Origin: Bdellovibrionales bacterium
GTDB lineage: Bacteria; Bdellovibrionota; JAFGOL01
DNA length: 35,975 nucleotides
Assembly (NCBI GenBank): GCA_022707945.1
Contig: JAKIZQ010000001.1
Location: 3,120 to 39,094, forward strand
Reading direction: 5' to 3'
Shown: one piece after another, positions 2,262 through 24,971 of the stretch
Numbering within the stretch: the first letter of the stretch is position 1
Layout: each line of letters starts with the position of its first letter
Program-made: the position numbers and the translations under genes
The notes under the pieces: generated by a model
Told to the model about the DNA's origin: nothing
Database searches by the model: none
What the model saw: only the letters and a program-made list of their open reading frames with translations

Positions 2262-3521
2262 ATGAATAAAACCTTATCTAGAATATTTTTATTGTTGTTA
2301 ATTCTTAATTCTTTCGTGGTTTTTGCAGAGGATTTCCCAACAGATGAGATTAGTTTAGACCAAGGTTTTGCAGAGGATAAAGGTATCACGCAGGAGCAAA
2401 AGGATTTTTCCTTGAGGGATAAGACAGAAATTGGTGGTTCCATATTCAGTGATTTTTATTATTCAACATATAGTGATAAGAGTTTTAATAATAACGTTTT
2501 TACTAATACCAATCTTGGATATGTGTATCTTGATTCAAAACTTCCAGAGGACGTAAGGTTTTTTCTTAAGGGTAAGTTCGTCTATACTCCTACTTCTGAA
2601 GGTGAACTTTCTCCTGTAACAGGGGAGACGTACGAAAAACTTTCTGCTGATCTTGATGAAGCAAAGATAATGTTCAATGCATACAACAGTGTTTTCTTTA
2701 CATTGGGTAAACAAAAAGTGAAATATGGTGCGGCAAAGTTTTGGAATCCAACTGATTTTTTGAACCAGACCATGAAGAACCCCTTTTACGACTATGATAG
2801 AAGAACAGGGCTACCGTTGGTTAAAATGCATATTCCAATAAATAGTAGTAACTTTTATTTGATAGGTGATCTTGATGATGCAAGGAATATAGACCAAGCA
2901 TCTTATGTTGTGCGATATGAGTTGCCTTTAGAAGCATCAGAATTTTCTATTTCAACGAGGGCAAAAAAAGATTCTGCAACAAAGCTTGGTTTTGATCTTT
3001 CTACAGCTTTATATGAGATAGATGTATACGCAGAAACCAGTGTTTCAAAAGGGAGTGACAAGATCTTTTATACACAGGCTGGTACTCCTTACATGGATAC
3101 GAAAAAAACATTTTGGGACGTTTCTGCAGGTATGAGCTATGAAATGCCTTTTCTTGACGCAGATTCAATAACTTTTTCTTTAGAGTACTACTATAACGGT
3201 GAAGGTTATAAAGACCCTTCTATGTATGGTATTCTATGGCTAAAGAAAGCGTATGTACCTCTTAATACGTCCAAGCAGTATGCGATGTTTATGATCTATG
3301 CACCAAATCCAGGTTCATGGAACGATACTAACATAAGTATTTTTAATATTGCCAATCTTACAGACTCTAGTGCTATAACGAGGGCAGAGTTAATGTATCT
3401 TTTTACAAAAGATCTTTCTATTGGATTTAATATAACAGGTCATTATGGCAAGAGTAGCGGTGAATTCCGTTTGTATGGACAACTTTTGGACTTTGGCGTG
3501 AGATTTGAACTTAATTTCTAA
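2262..3521 (+). CDS. putative outer-membrane beta-barrel protein (uncharacterised)
   Basis: From the ATG at 2262 the signal peptide is MNKTLSRIFLLLLILNSFVVFA; the track's GTG at 2253 is less likely. SD AGGTGA lies 5 nt upstream. The sequence has alternating aromatic/hydrophilic strands and a C-terminal ...RFELNF with terminal Phe, typical of OMPs. It is co-oriented and overlapping with the LolA-like gene. Confidence 0.5.
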   Translation: MNKTLSRIFLLLLILNSFVVFAEDFPTDEISLDQGFAEDKGITQEQKDFSLRDKTEIGGSIFSDFYYSTYSDKSFNNNVFTNTNLGYVYLDSKLPEDVRFFLKGKFVYTPTSEGELSPVTGETYEKLSADLDEAKIMFNAYNSVFFTLGKQKVKYGAAKFWNPTDFLNQTMKNPFYDYDRRTGLPLVKMHIPINSSNFYLIGDLDDARNIDQASYVVRYELPLEASEFSISTRAKKDSATKLGFDLSTALYEIDVYAETSVSKGSDKIFYTQAGTPYMDTKKTFWDVSAGMSYEMPFLDADSITFSLEYYYNGEGYKDPSMYGILWLKKAYVPLNTSKQYAMFMIYAPNPGSWNDTNISIFNIANLTDSSAITRAELMYLFTKDLSIGFNITGHYGKSSGEFRLYGQLLDFGVRFELNF

Positions 3522-8657: not shown

Positions 8658-9317
8658 ATGAAATTTGATGCTATAGTTTTTGATCTTGATGGAACACTTA
8701 TAGATAGTTCTAAAGGTATCCTTGATTCTTTATTTAAGGCTATGGATGTCCACGGAATAAAACCTGCTATAACAAAACTTGATTCACATTTTTTTATGGG
8801 CAAAAGTTTGCCAGAGACGCTAGACGTACTGATGCCCGGAGCAACAAAAGAAATGATCAAGAAAGTCGGGGATTATTATGTAAGTCATTACTACGATAAT
8901 TATATGGATAAAGCAGAGACCTTTGAAGGTGTTAAGGAAACCATAAGATCTTTGTATGAAAGAGGATACAAGATGGCTGTTGCTACAGCTAAACATACTT
9001 TTTGTGCAGAAGCAGAGCTTAAGTCTTCTGGTATTAGAGGGTATTTTCTAGAAGTAAGAGGCAGAGATGAAGGTGTGCCAGCAAAGCCAGACCCAAAATT
9101 ACTTTTTGAAATATGTGAAAAGCTTAATGTGGACCCAAAAAAAATATTAATGGTTGGAGATACAGATAGAGACGTTCTTTTTGGCAAGAATGCAGGAACA
9201 AGTACTTGCGCTGTTACTTATGGCAATTGGTCTAAAGAAAAATTTATTAGAGAGAATATAATACCGGATGTGTTCGTAGATAGGTTTAATGGAATATTGG
9301 ACCTCTTGGAAAACTAA
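8658..9317 (+). CDS. HAD-superfamily hydrolase (phosphoglycolate-phosphatase-like, subfamily IA)
   Basis: Motif I is FDAIVFDLDGTLIDS. VATAK (motif II region) and MVGDTDRDVLFGKNAG (motif IV) are also present. Confidence 0.8.
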   Translation: MKFDAIVFDLDGTLIDSSKGILDSLFKAMDVHGIKPAITKLDSHFFMGKSLPETLDVLMPGATKEMIKKVGDYYVSHYYDNYMDKAETFEGVKETIRSLYERGYKMAVATAKHTFCAEAELKSSGIRGYFLEVRGRDEGVPAKPDPKLLFEICEKLNVDPKKILMVGDTDRDVLFGKNAGTSTCAVTYGNWSKEKFIRENIIPDVFVDRFNGILDLLEN

Positions 9318-11574: not shown

Positions 11575-12647
11575 TGTTCTGGCACAAACATAAAACTTTT
11601 ATTATGTTCATCTCTATTTTGGCCGTTCTTATCTCCTTGTATTATGTGTCCTCATTTATGGTTTTTGTCTATACTCCAGCGACATCGTTCAAAGGTGCAC
11701 ATGTGGTTGATATTCCCCACGGTGCTTCTTTTAGGAAGATAACTGATATTCTTAAGCAGAATAGATTGGTTAAAGATAAAAAAAGGTTTTTGATACTTGC
11801 TAGGCTAACAGGAGCGGATAAGAGGATACAGTCAGGAGAGCTGCAATTTGATCTTTCTATGACCCCAATGCAAGTGTTGGATAAGTTAATGTATGGCGTG
11901 CCTGTGGCCTATGCTTTTATTGTCCCTGAAGGAACCAACATATATCAGATAGGCGAAATACTTAAGAACATGGGAATGATAAAAGACCCATCAGAATTTG
12001 TGAGTGCCGCAAAGAATAGAAAACTTATAGAAGAACTGGGTGTAAAAGCAAAGAGTATGGAAGGATATTTGTTTCCAGATACTTACAATATAAGAAAGAC
12101 TAAAGACGTTAAGGACATAATAAGGATGATGCATAAAAAATATAAAAACGTCTTTAACGACGACCTTTTAAGGCGGGCTTATAAAATGGGCCTTAGTGAA
12201 CATGAAACGGTGACTCTTGCTTCTATAATAGAGAAAGAAACTGGCGCTCCAGAAGAAAGGAAATTAATTTCTTCTGTTTTTCATAATAGACTTAAAAAAG
12301 GTATGCCACTACAGAGTGATCCCACTACTATCTATGGTCTTTGGGAGAATTATGATGGGAATCTTACAAAAGATAAACTACAACAGTATACTCCTTACAA
12401 CACTTATAAGATACATGGCTTGCCTGTTGGTCCAATAGCTAATCCGGGCAAAGAATCCATTGTTGCCGCTCTCTATCCAGATGATACAGACTATTTATTT
12501 TTTGTATCAAAGAATGACGGGACACATACTTTTACTATTGAATATAAAGATCATTTAAAAGCAGTTGGTAAATATCAGCTTGATGCAAAACAACGTCAGG
12601 GTAAAAGCTGGCGTGATCTTAAAAATCCTAAGAAGCAAGGTCTTTAA
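11574..12647 (+). CDS. mltG: endolytic peptidoglycan transglycosylase MltG (YceG family)
   Basis: It has an N-terminal TM helix. LASIIEKETGAPEERKLISSVFHNRLKKGMPLQSDPTTIYG and YNTYKIHGLPVGPIANPG are YceG/MltG signature motifs. The ATG overlaps the ALDH stop (TAATG), with AAGGAG 5 nt upstream. Confidence 0.9.
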   Translation: MFWHKHKTFIMFISILAVLISLYYVSSFMVFVYTPATSFKGAHVVDIPHGASFRKITDILKQNRLVKDKKRFLILARLTGADKRIQSGELQFDLSMTPMQVLDKLMYGVPVAYAFIVPEGTNIYQIGEILKNMGMIKDPSEFVSAAKNRKLIEELGVKAKSMEGYLFPDTYNIRKTKDVKDIIRMMHKKYKNVFNDDLLRRAYKMGLSEHETVTLASIIEKETGAPEERKLISSVFHNRLKKGMPLQSDPTTIYGLWENYDGNLTKDKLQQYTPYNTYKIHGLPVGPIANPGKESIVAALYPDDTDYLFFVSKNDGTHTFTIEYKDHLKAVGKYQLDAKQRQGKSWRDLKNPKKQGL

Positions 12648-16388: not shown

Positions 16389-17239
16389 ATAGAGCCTTAT
16401 GCTGTCTGTTAATATCGTTCTGTTTGAGTAGTTGCAATCGTTCTACATACAATAAGGGTAGCGTAGTGCATCCAAAGAAAGATAAAAATGGTTATAGTGT
16501 TTCTTATGTTAAGACTAAAAGTAGTGGTAATTTTACTAATTTATTCAGAGTGTCTGCTGATGATGTTCCTGTTTGGTGTGATCTAAGTGGGCGGTCCTCA
16601 AGATATTTAGAAGCTGCCAACCTCGTGTTACAATCTAAAGACCTTAAGCCTGTCTATGTTGCCTGTTATTCTGGTAAGACACCAGAGATCTATGATAACC
16701 ATAATGTTGATCGTGCTCTAAAGATAGGTAAAAAAACATTGTATTTGTATGATCCGTTAGATGAACTTTTATTTGTTGCTGTTAGTATAAAAAGTAATTG
16801 TATCCAAGATATGCCTGTTTATTATTTTTCTTTATATTATGAACTTTGTACTGGGAATGGTGTGGAATGTTGCATGAATGGTAACGGAAAGTCTTTTAAC
16901 ATATATGCTGTTATAAAAGATGACCCTAGCTTAGATATTAAAACAAGGCTCAAAAGTTTTTTTGAATATATTTCTAAACCATCTCTGTCGAATATGGCAC
17001 AAGATGCGTCTTACGATATTTTTACCTCTTACATAGAGGATGTTTGTTCATTCAATCGATGGTATCACGGTGCTGTTCATATGGGCATAACAGATCCAGA
17101 AACATTTTTAGATAAGGATGTTTGGACCGAACATTTTAATTCATTAAAGACTTGTGAAATAAAGATCCAAAACAGTTTGTTGCTGTTTGTTGGGCCTAAA
17201 GAGCCCAAAGCAGAACTTATCGATTCTCTAGTTCCTTGA
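16385..17239 (+). CDS. hypothetical lipoprotein, Cys-rich
   Basis: The lipobox is LLISFCLSSC. It shares an ATGA overlap with the preceding M16-like gene. I recognised no family. Confidence 0.45.
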   Translation: MNRALCCLLISFCLSSCNRSTYNKGSVVHPKKDKNGYSVSYVKTKSSGNFTNLFRVSADDVPVWCDLSGRSSRYLEAANLVLQSKDLKPVYVACYSGKTPEIYDNHNVDRALKIGKKTLYLYDPLDELLFVAVSIKSNCIQDMPVYYFSLYYELCTGNGVECCMNGNGKSFNIYAVIKDDPSLDIKTRLKSFFEYISKPSLSNMAQDASYDIFTSYIEDVCSFNRWYHGAVHMGITDPETFLDKDVWTEHFNSLKTCEIKIQNSLLLFVGPKEPKAELIDSLVP

Positions 17240-21318: not shown

Positions 21319-22428
21319 ATGGTTTCAAAAATAGAAAGAGATCATGCAAGGTTCCAAGAAATAGTAAAGGGAAAGATTCGTCAGAATCTTAAGGAATACA
21401 TCACTAAGGGAGAAATGATAGGTCGTGTAGGAAAGCATTTTGTAAGTATTCCTGTTCCAAGAATAGACCTTCCCAGATTTAGATATGGGCTTCCAGAGAC
21501 TGGTGGTGTGAGTTCGGGTGACGGTGCAGAAGGAACTCCACTTGGGCCAGCTTATGATCCAGAAGATGGTGGTGGAGAGGCTGGTAACCAACCGGGACAA
21601 CATGAACTTGAAGTTGATATCAGTATAGAAGAACTTGCAAAAATGTTGGGAGAAGAACTGGAACTCCCAAAAATAGAGCCAAAAGGTTCGAGTAAGATGG
21701 AAGCTATGAAAAGAGTTTATAGGGGAGTCCATCTTGTTGGTCCTCGGTCTTTGGTCCATTTTAAAAGAACATATAAAGAAGCATTAAAGAGGCAAATAAT
21801 ATCTGGAGAGTATGATCCAGACGATCCTGTTATAGTGCCAATAAAGAAAGATTTTAGATATAGAGGTTGGAAGGATATAGTTCAGCCTCAATATAATGCA
21901 GTGGTCATATACATGATGGACGTTAGTGGTAGCATGGGTGATGAGCAAAAAGAGATGGTAAGAATAGAATCTTTTTGGATAGATACTTGGTTAAGAAGTC
22001 ATTACAGAGATCTTGAAACAAGGTTTATCGTACATGATGCTTCTGCGAGACTTGTAGATAGAGAAACTTTTTTTAAAACAAAAGAGAGTGGTGGAACACT
22101 GATATCTTCTGCGTATAAACTTTGTGACATACTTATAGATAGAGAATTTCCACCAGATGAGTGGAATGTATATCCTTTCCATTTTTCTGATGGTGATAAC
22201 TGGTCGTCAGAAGATACTCGTGTTTGTGTTGAACTTTTAAGGAACAACATTATCCCAAAGTCAAATATGTTCTGTTATGGACAGGTAACAAGCAGGTATG
22301 GCTCTGGGCAATTCATAAAGGATTTACAAGAGAACTTTAAAGATGACGACAAACTGATACTTTCAACAATAGAGAATAAAGACGGCATACTTAACTCCAT
22401 AAAAGATTTTCTTGGAAAAGGTAAATGA
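21319..22428 (+). CDS. YeaH/YhbH family protein (DUF444, vWA-like)
   Basis: 369 aa. [39 protein letters not shown] (vWA MIDAS-like) and [12 protein letters not shown] are typical of DUF444, the partner of PrkA. Confidence 0.85.
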
Positions 22429-23939
22429 ACATGATGGTTGGAACAGAACTCACTCCTCAACTACAAAGGATAAATGAACAGGTAAAGAAGTATGCCCTTA
22501 GCTATGGGTTGGATTTTTTTGAAGTTATATTTGAGATGATAGACTATAAACAGGTGAACGAAATAGCTTCACTTGGTGGATTTCCAACAAGATATCCTCA
22601 CTGGCGTTTTGGCATGGAATATGACAGGCTCTCAAAAAGTTATCAGTATGGACTTCATAAGATCTACGAGATGGTCATAAATAATGACCCTTGTTACGCC
22701 TATCTTCTAAGGGCCAACAAACTTATAGATCAGAAACTTGTAATGGCTCACGTTTATGCGCATTGTGATTTTTTTAAATGTAACATGTATTTTGATGGAA
22801 CTAACAGAAAGATGATGGACGAAATGGCAAACCATGCAACAAGGATCCGTCGTTATATGGACAAACATGGTGTTAGTGTTGTTGAGGATTTTATTGATGC
22901 CTGTCTTTCTATAGAGAACCTAATAGATTATCACTATAATCGTGCGGAGCGTCTTTATAAACCAATAGAACAAGAGATAGACGAGGATGATATAGACACA
23001 GAGAACCCTCCACTAAGAGTGCCTAAACTTAAAAGCAAAAATTACATGGATAAATTCATAAATCCTGATTCTTTTATAAAACAACAGTTGAATAAACTCC
23101 TAAAACAGAAAGAAAAAAGTAAGAAGTTTCCTTCAGAAGACGAAAAAGACGTTCTCTTGTTCCTTCAGGAATACGCTCCGTTAAAAAACTGGCAAAGGGA
23201 TGTGCTCTCTATAATCAGAGAAGAATCTTATTATTTTTCTCCTCAGGGACAGACAAAGATAATGAATGAAGGTTGGGCTAGTTATTGGCACTCAAGGATA
23301 ATGACAGAAAAAGCATTAATGGATTCTGAGATAGTTGATTTTGCAGATCATCATAGTGGTACTGTTCATATGAGGCCGGGCACTCTTAATCCTTATAAAC
23401 TTGGTTTGGAACTTTTCAGAGATATAGAGGAGCGATGGGATAAAGGCATGTTCGGTAAAGAGTGGGAAGAATGTAATGATTTTAAAGAAAAGAAGAATTG
23501 GGATAAGAAACTTGGTTTTGGTAGGCAGAAAATATTTGAAGTAAGACGACTTTATAATGATGTAACTTTCATAGACACCTTCCTTACCCCAGAGTTCGCA
23601 CAAAAATTCAAACTTTTCGTTTTTGATGCTAATAAGAAAACTGGCCAGTGGGAAATAGCTAGTCGTGAATTCAAAAAAGTTAAAGACAAACTATTGTTCC
23701 AGCTTACTAATTTTGGTCAACCATTCATCTCTGTTAACGATGGTAATTTTAAAAACAGAGGAGAGTTGTTGCTAGCACACAGACACGAAGGATTTGATCT
23801 CAAGGTTTCTGAAGCCCATCGTACATTAGAGAATGTTTTTAAGATATGGAGACGTACTGTAAATATAAAAACTATCGTCCAGGGTGAGAATAAACTGTTG
23901 AGTTATGACGGAAAAGAACACACCGAATCTCCTTTCTAA
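22425..23939 (+). CDS. spoVR: SpoVR/YcgB family protein
   Basis: 504 aa. [57 protein letters not shown] and LAHRHEG are SpoVR signatures. Its start shares an ATGA overlap with the upstream gene stop. Confidence 0.88.
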
Positions 23940-24075
23940 GACCAAGCTACATTCAAGTCGCTAACATCGTTGGACTCTTGAAGCCTCCTCAACGTACTGT
24001 ATAAGTACGTTTGCGTCGTCTTCTGCGAGTCCGCCTCGTTATCGATCTTGACTGTAGCTTGGTCTAGTTTTTTTT
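23939..24075 (+). terminator. 127-nt imperfect rod hairpin closed by a perfect 13-bp stem and followed by T8. It may be a giant intrinsic terminator of spoVR or a structured RNA/palindromic element.
   Basis: 23939-23951 (AGACCAAGCTACA) pairs perfectly with 24053-24065 (TGTAGCTTGGTCT). The apex is AACGTACT-GTATA-AGTACGTT (23991-24011). The two halves align as a degenerate palindrome (shared TCAAG, TCG, TAAC, GGACTC, GAAG). T8 lies at 24068-24075. Confidence 0.5.
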
Positions 24076-24109
24076 GCATTCAAGTCGATAGCTTTGTTTA
24101 TAACGAGGC

Positions 24110-24296
24110 ATTCAATAATGCTTTTTTATGACTATCTCGGAGTTTTCGGGAAACCATTCTTGTCAGATTTTGCGTAAAAATTGCGTACGAGACCGATGCG
24201 ACGCACGGGGAGACAGCGGCGAGCTAGCAATTTTAGCAAAATGGGACTTAGAATGGTCGAAAACGGAGATCTAGTCATAAAAAAGTATTATTGAAT
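24110..24296. repeat. 187-nt GC-rich imperfect palindrome (about 62 bp of helix). It is a candidate structured sRNA or a MITE/ERIC-like element.
   Basis: Arms 24110-24134 and 24272-24296 pair over 25 bp with one G:T. Inner helices are 24135-38/24266-69, 24142-48/24258-64, 24153-60/24250-57, 24162-64/24245-47, 24167-73/24236-42 and 24177-84/24227-34. The 42-nt apex (24185-24226) is strikingly GC-rich. Confidence 0.5.
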
Positions 24297-24302
24297 AACA
24301 AG

Positions 24303-24971
24303 TTAGGCTGAGCGTTTTTGTTTTTCTTGTTCTTCTTTTTTGATTATTTTAATGAACGCATTAACGACTTTAGGATCGAACTGCGTTCCGCTACATCTTA
24401 TTATTTCGTCAACAGCAACATCTATTGGCATTCCTTTTCTGTATGGTCTATCACTGGTCATGGCATCAAAAGTATCTGCCACGAATATTATTCTTGATAT
24501 TAGAGGGATGTTCTCTTCTTTGAGTCCGTCTGGATAACCAAAACCATCAAAACGTTCATGGTGTGTTCGAACATATTTTTTATATACGTCTAGGTTCTCT
24601 ATGCCCTTTAGCATATCTTCGCCTCTAGTGGAGTGCTCTTGCATTATGGCATATTCTTCTTTTGTAAGACGTCCCGGTTTCTTAAGTATGCGGTCTGGAA
24701 TGCCAATCTTGCCTATGTCATGTAAAACTGCAGCAAGTTCAAGTTCTCTAAGCTGTTCTTTATCAAGTCCTAGCTGTTCACCTATTTTAATTGCATATTC
24801 TACGACCCTTATTGAATGTTCTTGTGTATATTGATCTTTTTCGCGGAGTGCCTTAAGAACTACTTTCACAAGATCATGAAATTGTTCATGATTTTTAACG
24901 GAAAGCTCTGTAATGACGTTATATAGGGTATCTACAAGATTTTTAACCCTTTTTCCGCTCTGCTTTTTCAT
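24303..24971 (-). CDS. HD-GYP domain phosphodiesterase (stand-alone, no sensor/receiver domain)
   Basis: HSIRVVEYA, LHDIGKIGIP and HHERFDGFGYPDGL are HD-GYP signatures. Only about 50 aa precede the catalytic domain. SD AAGGAG is upstream. Confidence 0.9.
   Translation of the reverse strand: MKKQSGKRVKNLVDTLYNVITELSVKNHEQFHDLVKVVLKALREKDQYTQEHSIRVVEYAIKIGEQLGLDKEQLRELELAAVLHDIGKIGIPDRILKKPGRLTKEEYAIMQEHSTRGEDMLKGIENLDVYKKYVRTHHERFDGFGYPDGLKEENIPLISRIIFVADTFDAMTSDRPYRKGMPIDVAVDEIIRCSGTQFDPKVVNAFIKIIKKEEQEKQKRSA

Follow-up and report, generated by a model that had tools for sequence, protein, structure and literature searches.

A dispersed and probably mobile palindromic repeat of uncultured Bdellovibrionales with a conserved, flipping core and a drifting, perfectly paired outer stem

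Most descriptions of small palindromic repeats concern proteobacterial pathogens, pseudomonads, pneumococci and cyanobacteria. The ERIC or IRU sequences of the enterobacteria are imperfect palindromes of 127 bp, and transcripts of the Correia elements of Neisseria are cut by RNase III (both PMC2229807). The REPINs are doublets of REP sequences which form hairpins and are mobilized by RAYT transposases; the GI-type REPIN has 71 bp between two 16-mers, and a quasispecies view with selection for mobility at the level of the family has been proposed for these elements (PMC3116915 and later work). Our searches of the literature gave no description of such repeats in Bdellovibrionota or Bdellovibrio-like organisms. 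Here we analyze a stretch of 35,975 nucleotides from a Bdellovibrionales bacterium (assembly GCA_022707945.1, contig JAKIZQ010000001.1, positions 3,120 to 39,094), which we call the window. Between the convergent genes spoVR and an HD-GYP domain gene it carries a long rod-like palindrome, element B, which is probably a non-autonomous mobile palindromic DNA element resembling ERIC and the miniature inverted-repeat transposable elements (MITEs), and not a dedicated gene for a regulatory RNA. As far as we can tell from Rfam and the literature, the family to which it belongs has not been described before.

A preliminary description of the window, made by a model from the letters alone, had drawn attention to this palindrome as a 187-nt hairpin with a GC-rich apex. 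Its account of the hairpin could be reproduced. The only departure from complementarity between the 25-nt terminal arms (24110-24134 and 24272-24296) is one G:T on the plus strand, and no arms of this kind are expected by chance; the series of helices and internal loops is the one that had been given. The 42-nt apex (24185-24226) has a GC content of 0.67 compared to 0.35 for the window, the best 42 nt in the apex region reaching 0.71 and the next best site of the window 0.62. The pairing extends beyond the 25-nt arms to TAAC/GTTA, and the whole element spans 24101-24305 as a rod of about 100 bp. When 206 nt (24100-24305) are folded, the minimum free energy (MFE) is -81.1 kcal/mol on the plus strand (z = -10.1) and -74.1 kcal/mol on the minus strand (z = -11.0), and none of 200 shuffled sequences folded as stably on either strand. 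The parts of the element are the following.

24101-24129, no strand assigned: left outer arm of B, composed of TAAC, GAGGC and ATTCAATAATGCTTTTTTAT; fast-evolving, stays complementary to the right outer arm
24130-24277, plus strand: core of B, GACTA...TAGTC; the orientation in which the core stands here on the plus strand is named E+
24185-24226, plus strand: GC-rich apex of B, with the direct repeats CGAGACCGATGCGA (24188-24201) and GAGACAGCGGCGAG (24210-24223) around a variable spacer (24202-24209)
24278-24305, no strand assigned: right outer arm of B, complementary to the left outer arm

The core, in which the arm sequence reads GGACTATCYGGAGTTTTCGGGAAACCATTCT, contains four invariant helices, GTTTTCG, ACCATTCT, ATTTTGC and AAAATTGC, each of which pairs with its complement on the opposite arm; it further contains a conserved one-sided GGAA bulge and asymmetric internal loops. 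That no protein-coding signal is present, as had been stated, holds also when other copies are consulted. The open reading frames of 47-48 codons in the gap have no Pfam match, the ATG of the 48-codon frames is AGG in other copies (L016 and L018; loci are designated by L and a number), and the length of the apex varies (8, 9, 14, 15 and 16 nt in its spacer) without keeping to multiples of three; a coding function is therefore rejected. A scan of 23700-24700 gave no terminator-like site, and no promoter-like one in the gap; no sigma-70-like promoter was found in the scanned core, and B is not followed by a T-run. The Rfam covariance models, including that of 6S RNA (RF00013, without a match on either strand of 23700-24600), gave no match to the element at E <= 10 in the gap of the window or at E <= 1 in six other B loci; the only matches were at chance level and away from the element.

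B is found to be dispersed. One genome per species was scanned with a pattern made from the inner arms of B, and metagenomes were scanned with a 20-mer of the core. The metagenome-assembled genome (MAG) CAYPMK01 ("uncultured Bdellovibrionales") contains three copies, each on a contig of its own, which agree at 92-95% over 161-185 nt including the apex and have unrelated flanks; a fourth copy (L057) lies at the orthologous HD-GYP locus on a contig broken off inside the element. The metagenomes contributed 17 further stretches carrying B, 75-98% identical, at least 10 of them on different contigs of one metagenome. Altogether B was found at 18 distinct loci, at least four of them in CAYPMK01, and the hosts form a clade of uncultured Bdellovibrionales from digesters, activated sludge and lakes. 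Within the 36-kb window there is no further copy. The neighbours include dnaB, fba, folE, purA, gltX, rpsI and genes for a class-I tRNA synthetase (ileS-like), an xerC/D-type recombinase, a polyprenyl synthase and a radical-SAM protein, among others. Most copies are located 2-40 nt downstream of a stop codon; the loci include co-directional gene pairs, and one copy lies between divergent genes. No transposase gene is present in the window or adjoining any copy. Viral contigs, searched with two patterns, and collections of phages and plasmids gave no real match, the four viral matches being chance 18-mers.

The preliminary description had left two interpretations standing, a 6S-type or other regulatory RNA and an ERIC/MITE-like repeat, and had itself proposed copy number as the test. 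The test favours the repeat: there are dispersed copies with unrelated flanks at 18 loci, and empty sites in relatives (see below). The other half of the interpretation, a dedicated small RNA (sRNA) or 6S-type gene, finds no support, as the element has no Rfam match, is multi-copy and non-syntenic, lacks a central bubble and is found in opposite orientations in closely related strains.

The copies share a characteristic anatomy. They are about 205-215 nt long with a core of 147-154 nt that runs from G[GA]CTA to TAG[TC]C, and the core of the window is 92-98% identical to copies in other genomes. Among 12 aligned copies 27 of the 30 pairs in core helices 3-6 are invariant and none is changed on both sides, while the internal loops vary. 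The two arms of the core are only about 75% identical to each other, with insertions and deletions. In the apex a spacer of 8-16 nt separates two direct repeats (CGAGACNGNNGCGAG); in one copy (L054, 1-162) repeat 1 and the spacer are gone, leaving a hairpin with a 12-bp stem and a 14-nt loop, which looks like a deletion by slippage between the two direct repeats.

The outer stem behaves in the opposite way. It is 20-33 bp long, and its first 20 pairs or more are Watson-Crick pairs without exception in 12 of the 14 complete copies. The outer arms of different copies can be recognized as homologous, but their mean identity is 0.57 compared to 0.90 for the cores, and an outer arm is complementary to its own partner at 0.89 of the positions but to the partner arm of another copy at 0.45. 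The pairs of the outer helix show two-sided changes in 28 cells of the comparison and one-sided changes in none, and the covariation score exceeds those of all 500 shuffles and all slid controls. Changes in length are matched as well (T6/A6 in the window, T4/A4 in L056). The pairs which are not Watson-Crick, eight G:T and seven A:C in 350 positions, are nearly all outermost or belong to two damaged copies. There is thus no strand signal in the family, and the plus strand, which the single G:T in the arm had been taken to favour weakly, loses that support. Several copies have 5'-TA-3' at both ends (TAAC..GTTA in the window; also L056, L036, L042, L046 and L055).

The rates of substitution were determined by comparing the window with the orthologous locus L056, which is collinear over 20 kb with 84-89% identity. 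Four-fold degenerate sites of four genes differ at 0.29-0.34 per site, the outer arms of B at 0.24-0.45, and the core at 0.027 (4/148). A second orthologous pair, the folE locus in L016 and L035, gives 0.33 for four-fold sites and 6/148 for the core. When seven copies from two species are aligned, 138 of 148 core columns are invariant and 7 of the 10 variable columns are located in the apex spacer. At one position of the core the two copies from the window's species have G and the five from the other species all have T; a substitution that is common to all copies within each species indicates gene conversion among paralogs. We considered a recent recombination tract as the reason for the low divergence of the core and rejected this, because the codons abutting the gap have diverged like the rest and the outer arms even more.

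The core is also found to flip. At the spoVR/HD-GYP junction L059 and L056 have flanks that are 94.4% identical, and their B elements agree at 98% once one of them is inverted, with outer stems that differ only by one compensated change. In L007, from activated sludge, 2 positions in about 1460 nt of flank are different from the window, and here too the core is inverted. Opposite orientations in near-identical strains imply that inversion is fast relative to point substitution. Neither in the 36-kb window nor beside the other copies did we find a gene for a recombinase or an invertase, except for the xerC/D-type gene at L054, and a dedicated invertase is unlikely as each copy has inverted repeats of its own sequence.

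At the locus in the window B is the last of three structures found, from left to right, in the gap between the two genes. The two to the left of it, which were overlooked in the preliminary description, are related to each other: a palindrome A and a remnant of an A-type arm.

22425-23939, plus strand: spoVR (Pfam SpoVR, E = 8e-140), last gene of a prkA / DUF444 / spoVR operon
23939-24065, no strand assigned: palindrome A, a 127-nt rod-like imperfect palindrome with 19-nt arms that are 95% complementary
24076-24098, plus strand: A-type left-arm remnant of 23 nt, CATTCAAGTCGATAGCTTTGTT, direct repeat D1, just upstream of B
24303-24971, minus strand: HD-GYP domain gene (Pfam HD_5, E = 2e-43), convergent with spoVR

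The gene ends at 23939 and 24303, and with them the 363 non-coding nucleotides between the two genes, agree with those reported earlier. So do the overlaps of 4-23 nt at the other four convergent pairs of the window (3511-3521, 9314-9317, 12628-12647 and 17217-17239). The inserts take part in the ends of both genes. The right outer arm of B ends in TTA (24303-24305), which is the stop codon of the HD-GYP gene, and spoVR reaches its stop codon where it joins palindrome A (23934-23942). In relatives without insert SpoVR is two codons longer (..F D K stop; L063 2520-2640 and L065 6620-6740), so the insertion has moved the stop to the A junction and reshaped the C-terminus of SpoVR. We suggest that the gap be annotated as two nested or adjacent repeat elements and not as an sRNA gene.

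Palindrome A folds with an MFE of -59.7 kcal/mol (z = -7.6) and represents a second dispersed family, in which the ends are conserved (ACCAAG..ATTCAAG..GCTAA) and the middle is variable and compensated. The window has no second copy of A; a diverged full copy is found at L055 (1267-1389). Between the window and L056, A has diverged by 8.7%, with compensated pairs, compared to 33% at neutral sites. Searches of all loci with nhmmer and profiles of B and A gave no extra B, a few more A arms and one full copy of A. In the related strain L059 the A-type arm remnant extends to 43 nt. A run of eight T (24068-24075) follows palindrome A and gives it some resemblance to a giant terminator of spoVR; it is not conserved in L056 or L059. 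The two families are often found together: A arms adjoin B directly at 8 of the 18 loci, among them dnaB, folE, L018, L051 and L052. In L052 B is flanked by A arms on both sides, and in L059 B meets the A arm at the point that matches the apex of a full A element. From these arrangements it appears that B often lands in or beside A.

Three loci have been found both filled and empty. On contigs with HD-GYP proteins 83-84% identical to that of the window, spoVR and the HD-GYP gene are 3 nt (L063 and L064) or 0 nt (L065) apart, and it follows that the lineage of the window has gained the whole 363 nt, with A, the A-arm remnant and B, by insertion. The gap after a radical-SAM gene is 225 nt with B in L036, where the element lies between this gene and the -35 box (TTGACC) of the next one, and 62-81 nt without B in L073-L075. 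The third case is the gap between dnaB and fba, which is 242 nt with an A arm and B in the sister species L013 (6314-6557), 26 nt without B in the window's own genome (L076 3865-3892, JAKQRX010000172.1, GCA_029563415.1) and 0 nt in L078. In the lake lineage L042 (8262-8480) a copy of B follows straight after the dnaB stop codon, in an arrangement unlike that of L013. The two copies after dnaB might be taken for one ancient orthologous copy (the DnaB proteins of L013 and L042 are 80% identical). This was rejected, as L076 and L078 are empty and the filled sites are differently arranged; the same observations indicate two independent insertions at the 3' end of dnaB, which is possibly a preferred target of B. 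The copies in L013 and L016 have the same apex spacer and outer arms that are about 84% identical when read by eye. L013 looks like the younger daughter copy, since its site is empty in the sister species. We also considered that the outer stems might be pre-existing hairpins with a core inserted in the loop. No core-less hairpin was found in 448 kb of loci or at the orthologous empty sites, and the idea is weakly rejected.

The junction between HD-GYP and spoVR has taken up other insertions too: in the relative L066 (6687-11655; HD-GYP protein 74% identical) a hipA/hipB-type toxin-antitoxin pair and two open reading frames are located between the two genes. In another relative, L065 (28-5014), a defence-island-like cluster of Vsr, MutH, a DNA methylase and AIPR lies upstream of the HD-GYP locus; the window lacks this cluster. 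Contigs assembled from short reads of various samples often terminate within palindrome A or B (L002, L005-L007, L009, L010, L057, L058 and L060-L062). The two repeat elements systematically interrupt the assembly of this organism, and they account for the many short-read assemblies that break at this gap.

The model that we favour can be formulated as follows. B arrived at the junction of spoVR and HD-GYP, whose stop codons abutted (the two genes were 0-3 nt apart in the ancestor), either along with A and a piece of a further A arm or later than these. An enzyme encoded elsewhere would copy B to new sites, mostly just after stop codons and often beside or inside A-type elements. The invariant helices of the core would be recognized by this mobilizing machinery or by another protein; invariant helices together with variable loops look like subterminal transposase-binding sites on both arms, unlike structured RNAs. 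Of the outer 20-33 bp nothing more would be needed than that they form a perfect inverted repeat. Changes would be copied from one outer arm to the other by recombination or template switching, and this copying would let the stem drift at about the neutral rate and still remain perfect in its Watson-Crick pairing. The same recombination would flip the asymmetric core, as half of the events would invert what lies between the arms, and would account for the opposite orientations in closely related strains. The arms of the core would be too different from each other, in sequence and in length, to join in, so that its asymmetries persist.

That the process acts at the level of DNA we infer from the wobble-free Watson-Crick stems, the matched insertions and deletions in the arms, the rate of the outer stem at or above neutral, and the frequent flipping. 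Compensatory evolution under selection, as treated by Kimura, would be much slower than the neutral rate. Transcription could still reach the element. Readthrough from spoVR or from the HD-GYP gene would add a very stable hairpin with a perfect duplex of 25-33 bp to the 3' end of the mRNA, which in the model is a side effect, and by analogy with Correia and ERIC elements (PMC2229807) such a hairpin might affect mRNA decay.

Several observations speak against this model. A mobilizing enzyme, or an autonomous element with the same ends, was not found in the window or in the neighbourhoods of the copies. The outermost sequence is the least conserved part, which is the reverse of what is seen in classical MITEs and REPINs. 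The TA is not symmetrical in L013, L016 and L018, and the relatives with empty sites are too diverged to fix the junction or a target-site duplication. The outer arm of L007 (L007/L037 1497-1578) differs from that of the window at about 9 of 32 nt in spite of flanks that are 99.86% identical; the model leaves this unexplained, and it could be due to allele replacement or to a fast process acting on the outer stem. Relative to a single adjacent upstream gene the core is found as E+ in eight cases and in the opposite orientation, E-, in two (p about 0.11, not significant), which hints at a constraint at the level of the transcript. Finally, orthologous cores are kept (138/148 columns, with four-fold sites at 0.33). 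Selfish copies should decay, and gene conversion alone is insufficient to explain this. Possible reasons for the retention of the core in orthologs are gene conversion together with selection for mobility at the level of the family, a function for the host, or both.

The second of these possibilities can be developed further. The core of 148 nt could be a functional module under purifying selection by the host at each copy, and the outer stem a built-in recombination switch which flips it. Such a module could be a platform for a protein that binds hairpin or duplex DNA, or an RNA processed from 3' untranslated regions (UTRs). We regard this version as rather unlikely. If it were true, relatives of predatory bacteria would possess in B a new class of chromosomal palindrome, domesticated and self-flipping, and if the conservation of the core does reflect selection by the host, a mobile hairpin would have been taken over for a cellular function.

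A rival proposal is that B is a domesticated multi-copy structured RNA. The copies would be transcribed mostly as parts of 3' UTRs, the core would be a protein platform or a precursor processed by RNase III whose arms act in trans, and the outer stem would only close the rod. The core evolves about 12 times slower than four-fold sites in the two orthologous pairs, the fold is very stable on both strands, and the covariation of the outer helix is formally strong (none of 500 shuffles reaches the observed score). The location of most copies 2-40 nt past a stop codon fits as well, and so does the orientation, E+ at 8 of the 10 loci with one adjacent upstream gene and at all four co-directional gene pairs. 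Still, we find the proposal unlikely. Invariant core helices with variable internal loops are the opposite of what is typical for structured RNAs, and the outer stems are nearly without the G-U pairs and one-sided changes that selection at the RNA level would tolerate. The flipping of the core in near-identical strains means that a transcript from a given flanking gene switches strand. The insertions are recent and polymorphic between sister species, and the element has no promoter-like or terminator-like site of its own and no relative in Rfam.

An invertible DNA switch (inverton) for phase variation, in which the outer arms are the inverted repeats and flipping of the core alters the expression of a neighbour, would explain why two lineages (window/L007 and L056/L059) show both orientations at one and the same locus with little divergence of the flanks, and the arms are indeed perfect inverted repeats of 25-33 bp. 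This explanation is very unlikely. With inverted repeats that differ for each copy no single site-specific invertase could recognize them all, and apart from the xerC/D-type gene at L054 there is no candidate for such an enzyme in the window or beside the copies. The core has no sigma-70-like promoter, and here B has the 3' ends of convergent genes on both sides, so that any promoter in it would produce nothing but antisense RNA.

That the structure is a fortuitous palindrome, or a long bidirectional terminator for spoVR and HD-GYP, we hold to be highly improbable: its position between convergent genes, the stability of the hairpin on both strands and the T8 run after palindrome A agree with a terminator, but the dispersed copies show that this is not sufficient, as the 148-nt core is present at 18 loci of which some are co-directional and one is divergent. 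Furthermore, B has no T-run behind it and no terminator-like site, the T8 run after A is not conserved in L056 and L059, and the relatives do without any spacer. A 6S-type RNA, i.e. a rod that binds RNA polymerase, has only the size (about 190-200 nt) and the rod shape in its favour and can practically be dismissed, since neither RF00013 nor any other Rfam model matches at E <= 10, a central asymmetric bubble is lacking, and the element is multi-copy, mobile and flipping.

It should finally be mentioned that an attC site of integrons was considered. Such sites are imperfect palindromes with the end boxes R'' (RYYYAAC) and R' (GTTRRRY). At the right end of the element in the window GTTAGGC fits R', but TTATAAC at the left end fails as R'', and neither box is present in L013, L018, L036 and L042; the candidate was rejected.

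How does B, seen as a mobile DNA element, compare with the known families? With ERIC and other bacterial MITEs it has many features in common. It is small, non-coding, A+T-rich outside the apex, and as a whole an imperfect palindrome; it is intergenic near housekeeping genes in either orientation, with filled and empty sites (at three loci), dispersed, and likely to be co-transcribed with its neighbours. Several copies share the 5'-TA-3' ends, and with about 205-215 nt B sits at the upper end of the size range of bacterial MITEs (PMC2229807). There is no sequence similarity, however, and the phylum is a different one. The terminal inverted repeats of B are not conserved in sequence (0.57 between copies, compared to 0.90 for the core): conservation is lowest in the outer 20-33 bp, which form copy-specific Watson-Crick stems, and the centre is nearly invariant.

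With the REPINs B shares the character of a non-autonomous replicator that forms a hairpin, as well as compensatory changes, persistent conserved blocks, and the occurrence of singlet remnants and clusters. The layout of B is reversed, with a conserved middle and variable ends, and B is about twice as long. REPINs occur in hundreds of copies compared to at least four per MAG for B. It is palindrome A, with conserved ends and a variable compensated middle, that fits the layout of a REPIN.

The Correia elements (NEMIS) of Neisseria are about 100-155 bp with long inverted repeats and are, like B, located close to genes. They have length variants with internal losses, which may be compared with the copy of B in L054 that is without apex repeat 1 and spacer. 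By analogy, the perfect outer stem of 25-33 bp in B would be a good substrate for RNase III. The repeats of Correia have, however, a conserved sequence with promoter and IHF motifs, which were not found in B, and a duplication of TA has been demonstrated for Correia only.

The flip/flop hairpins of parvovirus inverted terminal repeats (ITRs) and poxvirus telomeres are ends of linear replicons and are made by hairpin transfer during replication. B differs in being internal and chromosomal, with no sign of a replicon, but it may be likened to these terminal hairpins in having a perfect outer stem around an asymmetric inner part which is found in two inverted-complement orientations. With a conserved core, a perfectly paired stem changing at the neutral rate and frequent flipping, all on one palindrome of 200 nt, the B family offers a clean natural case of this combination.

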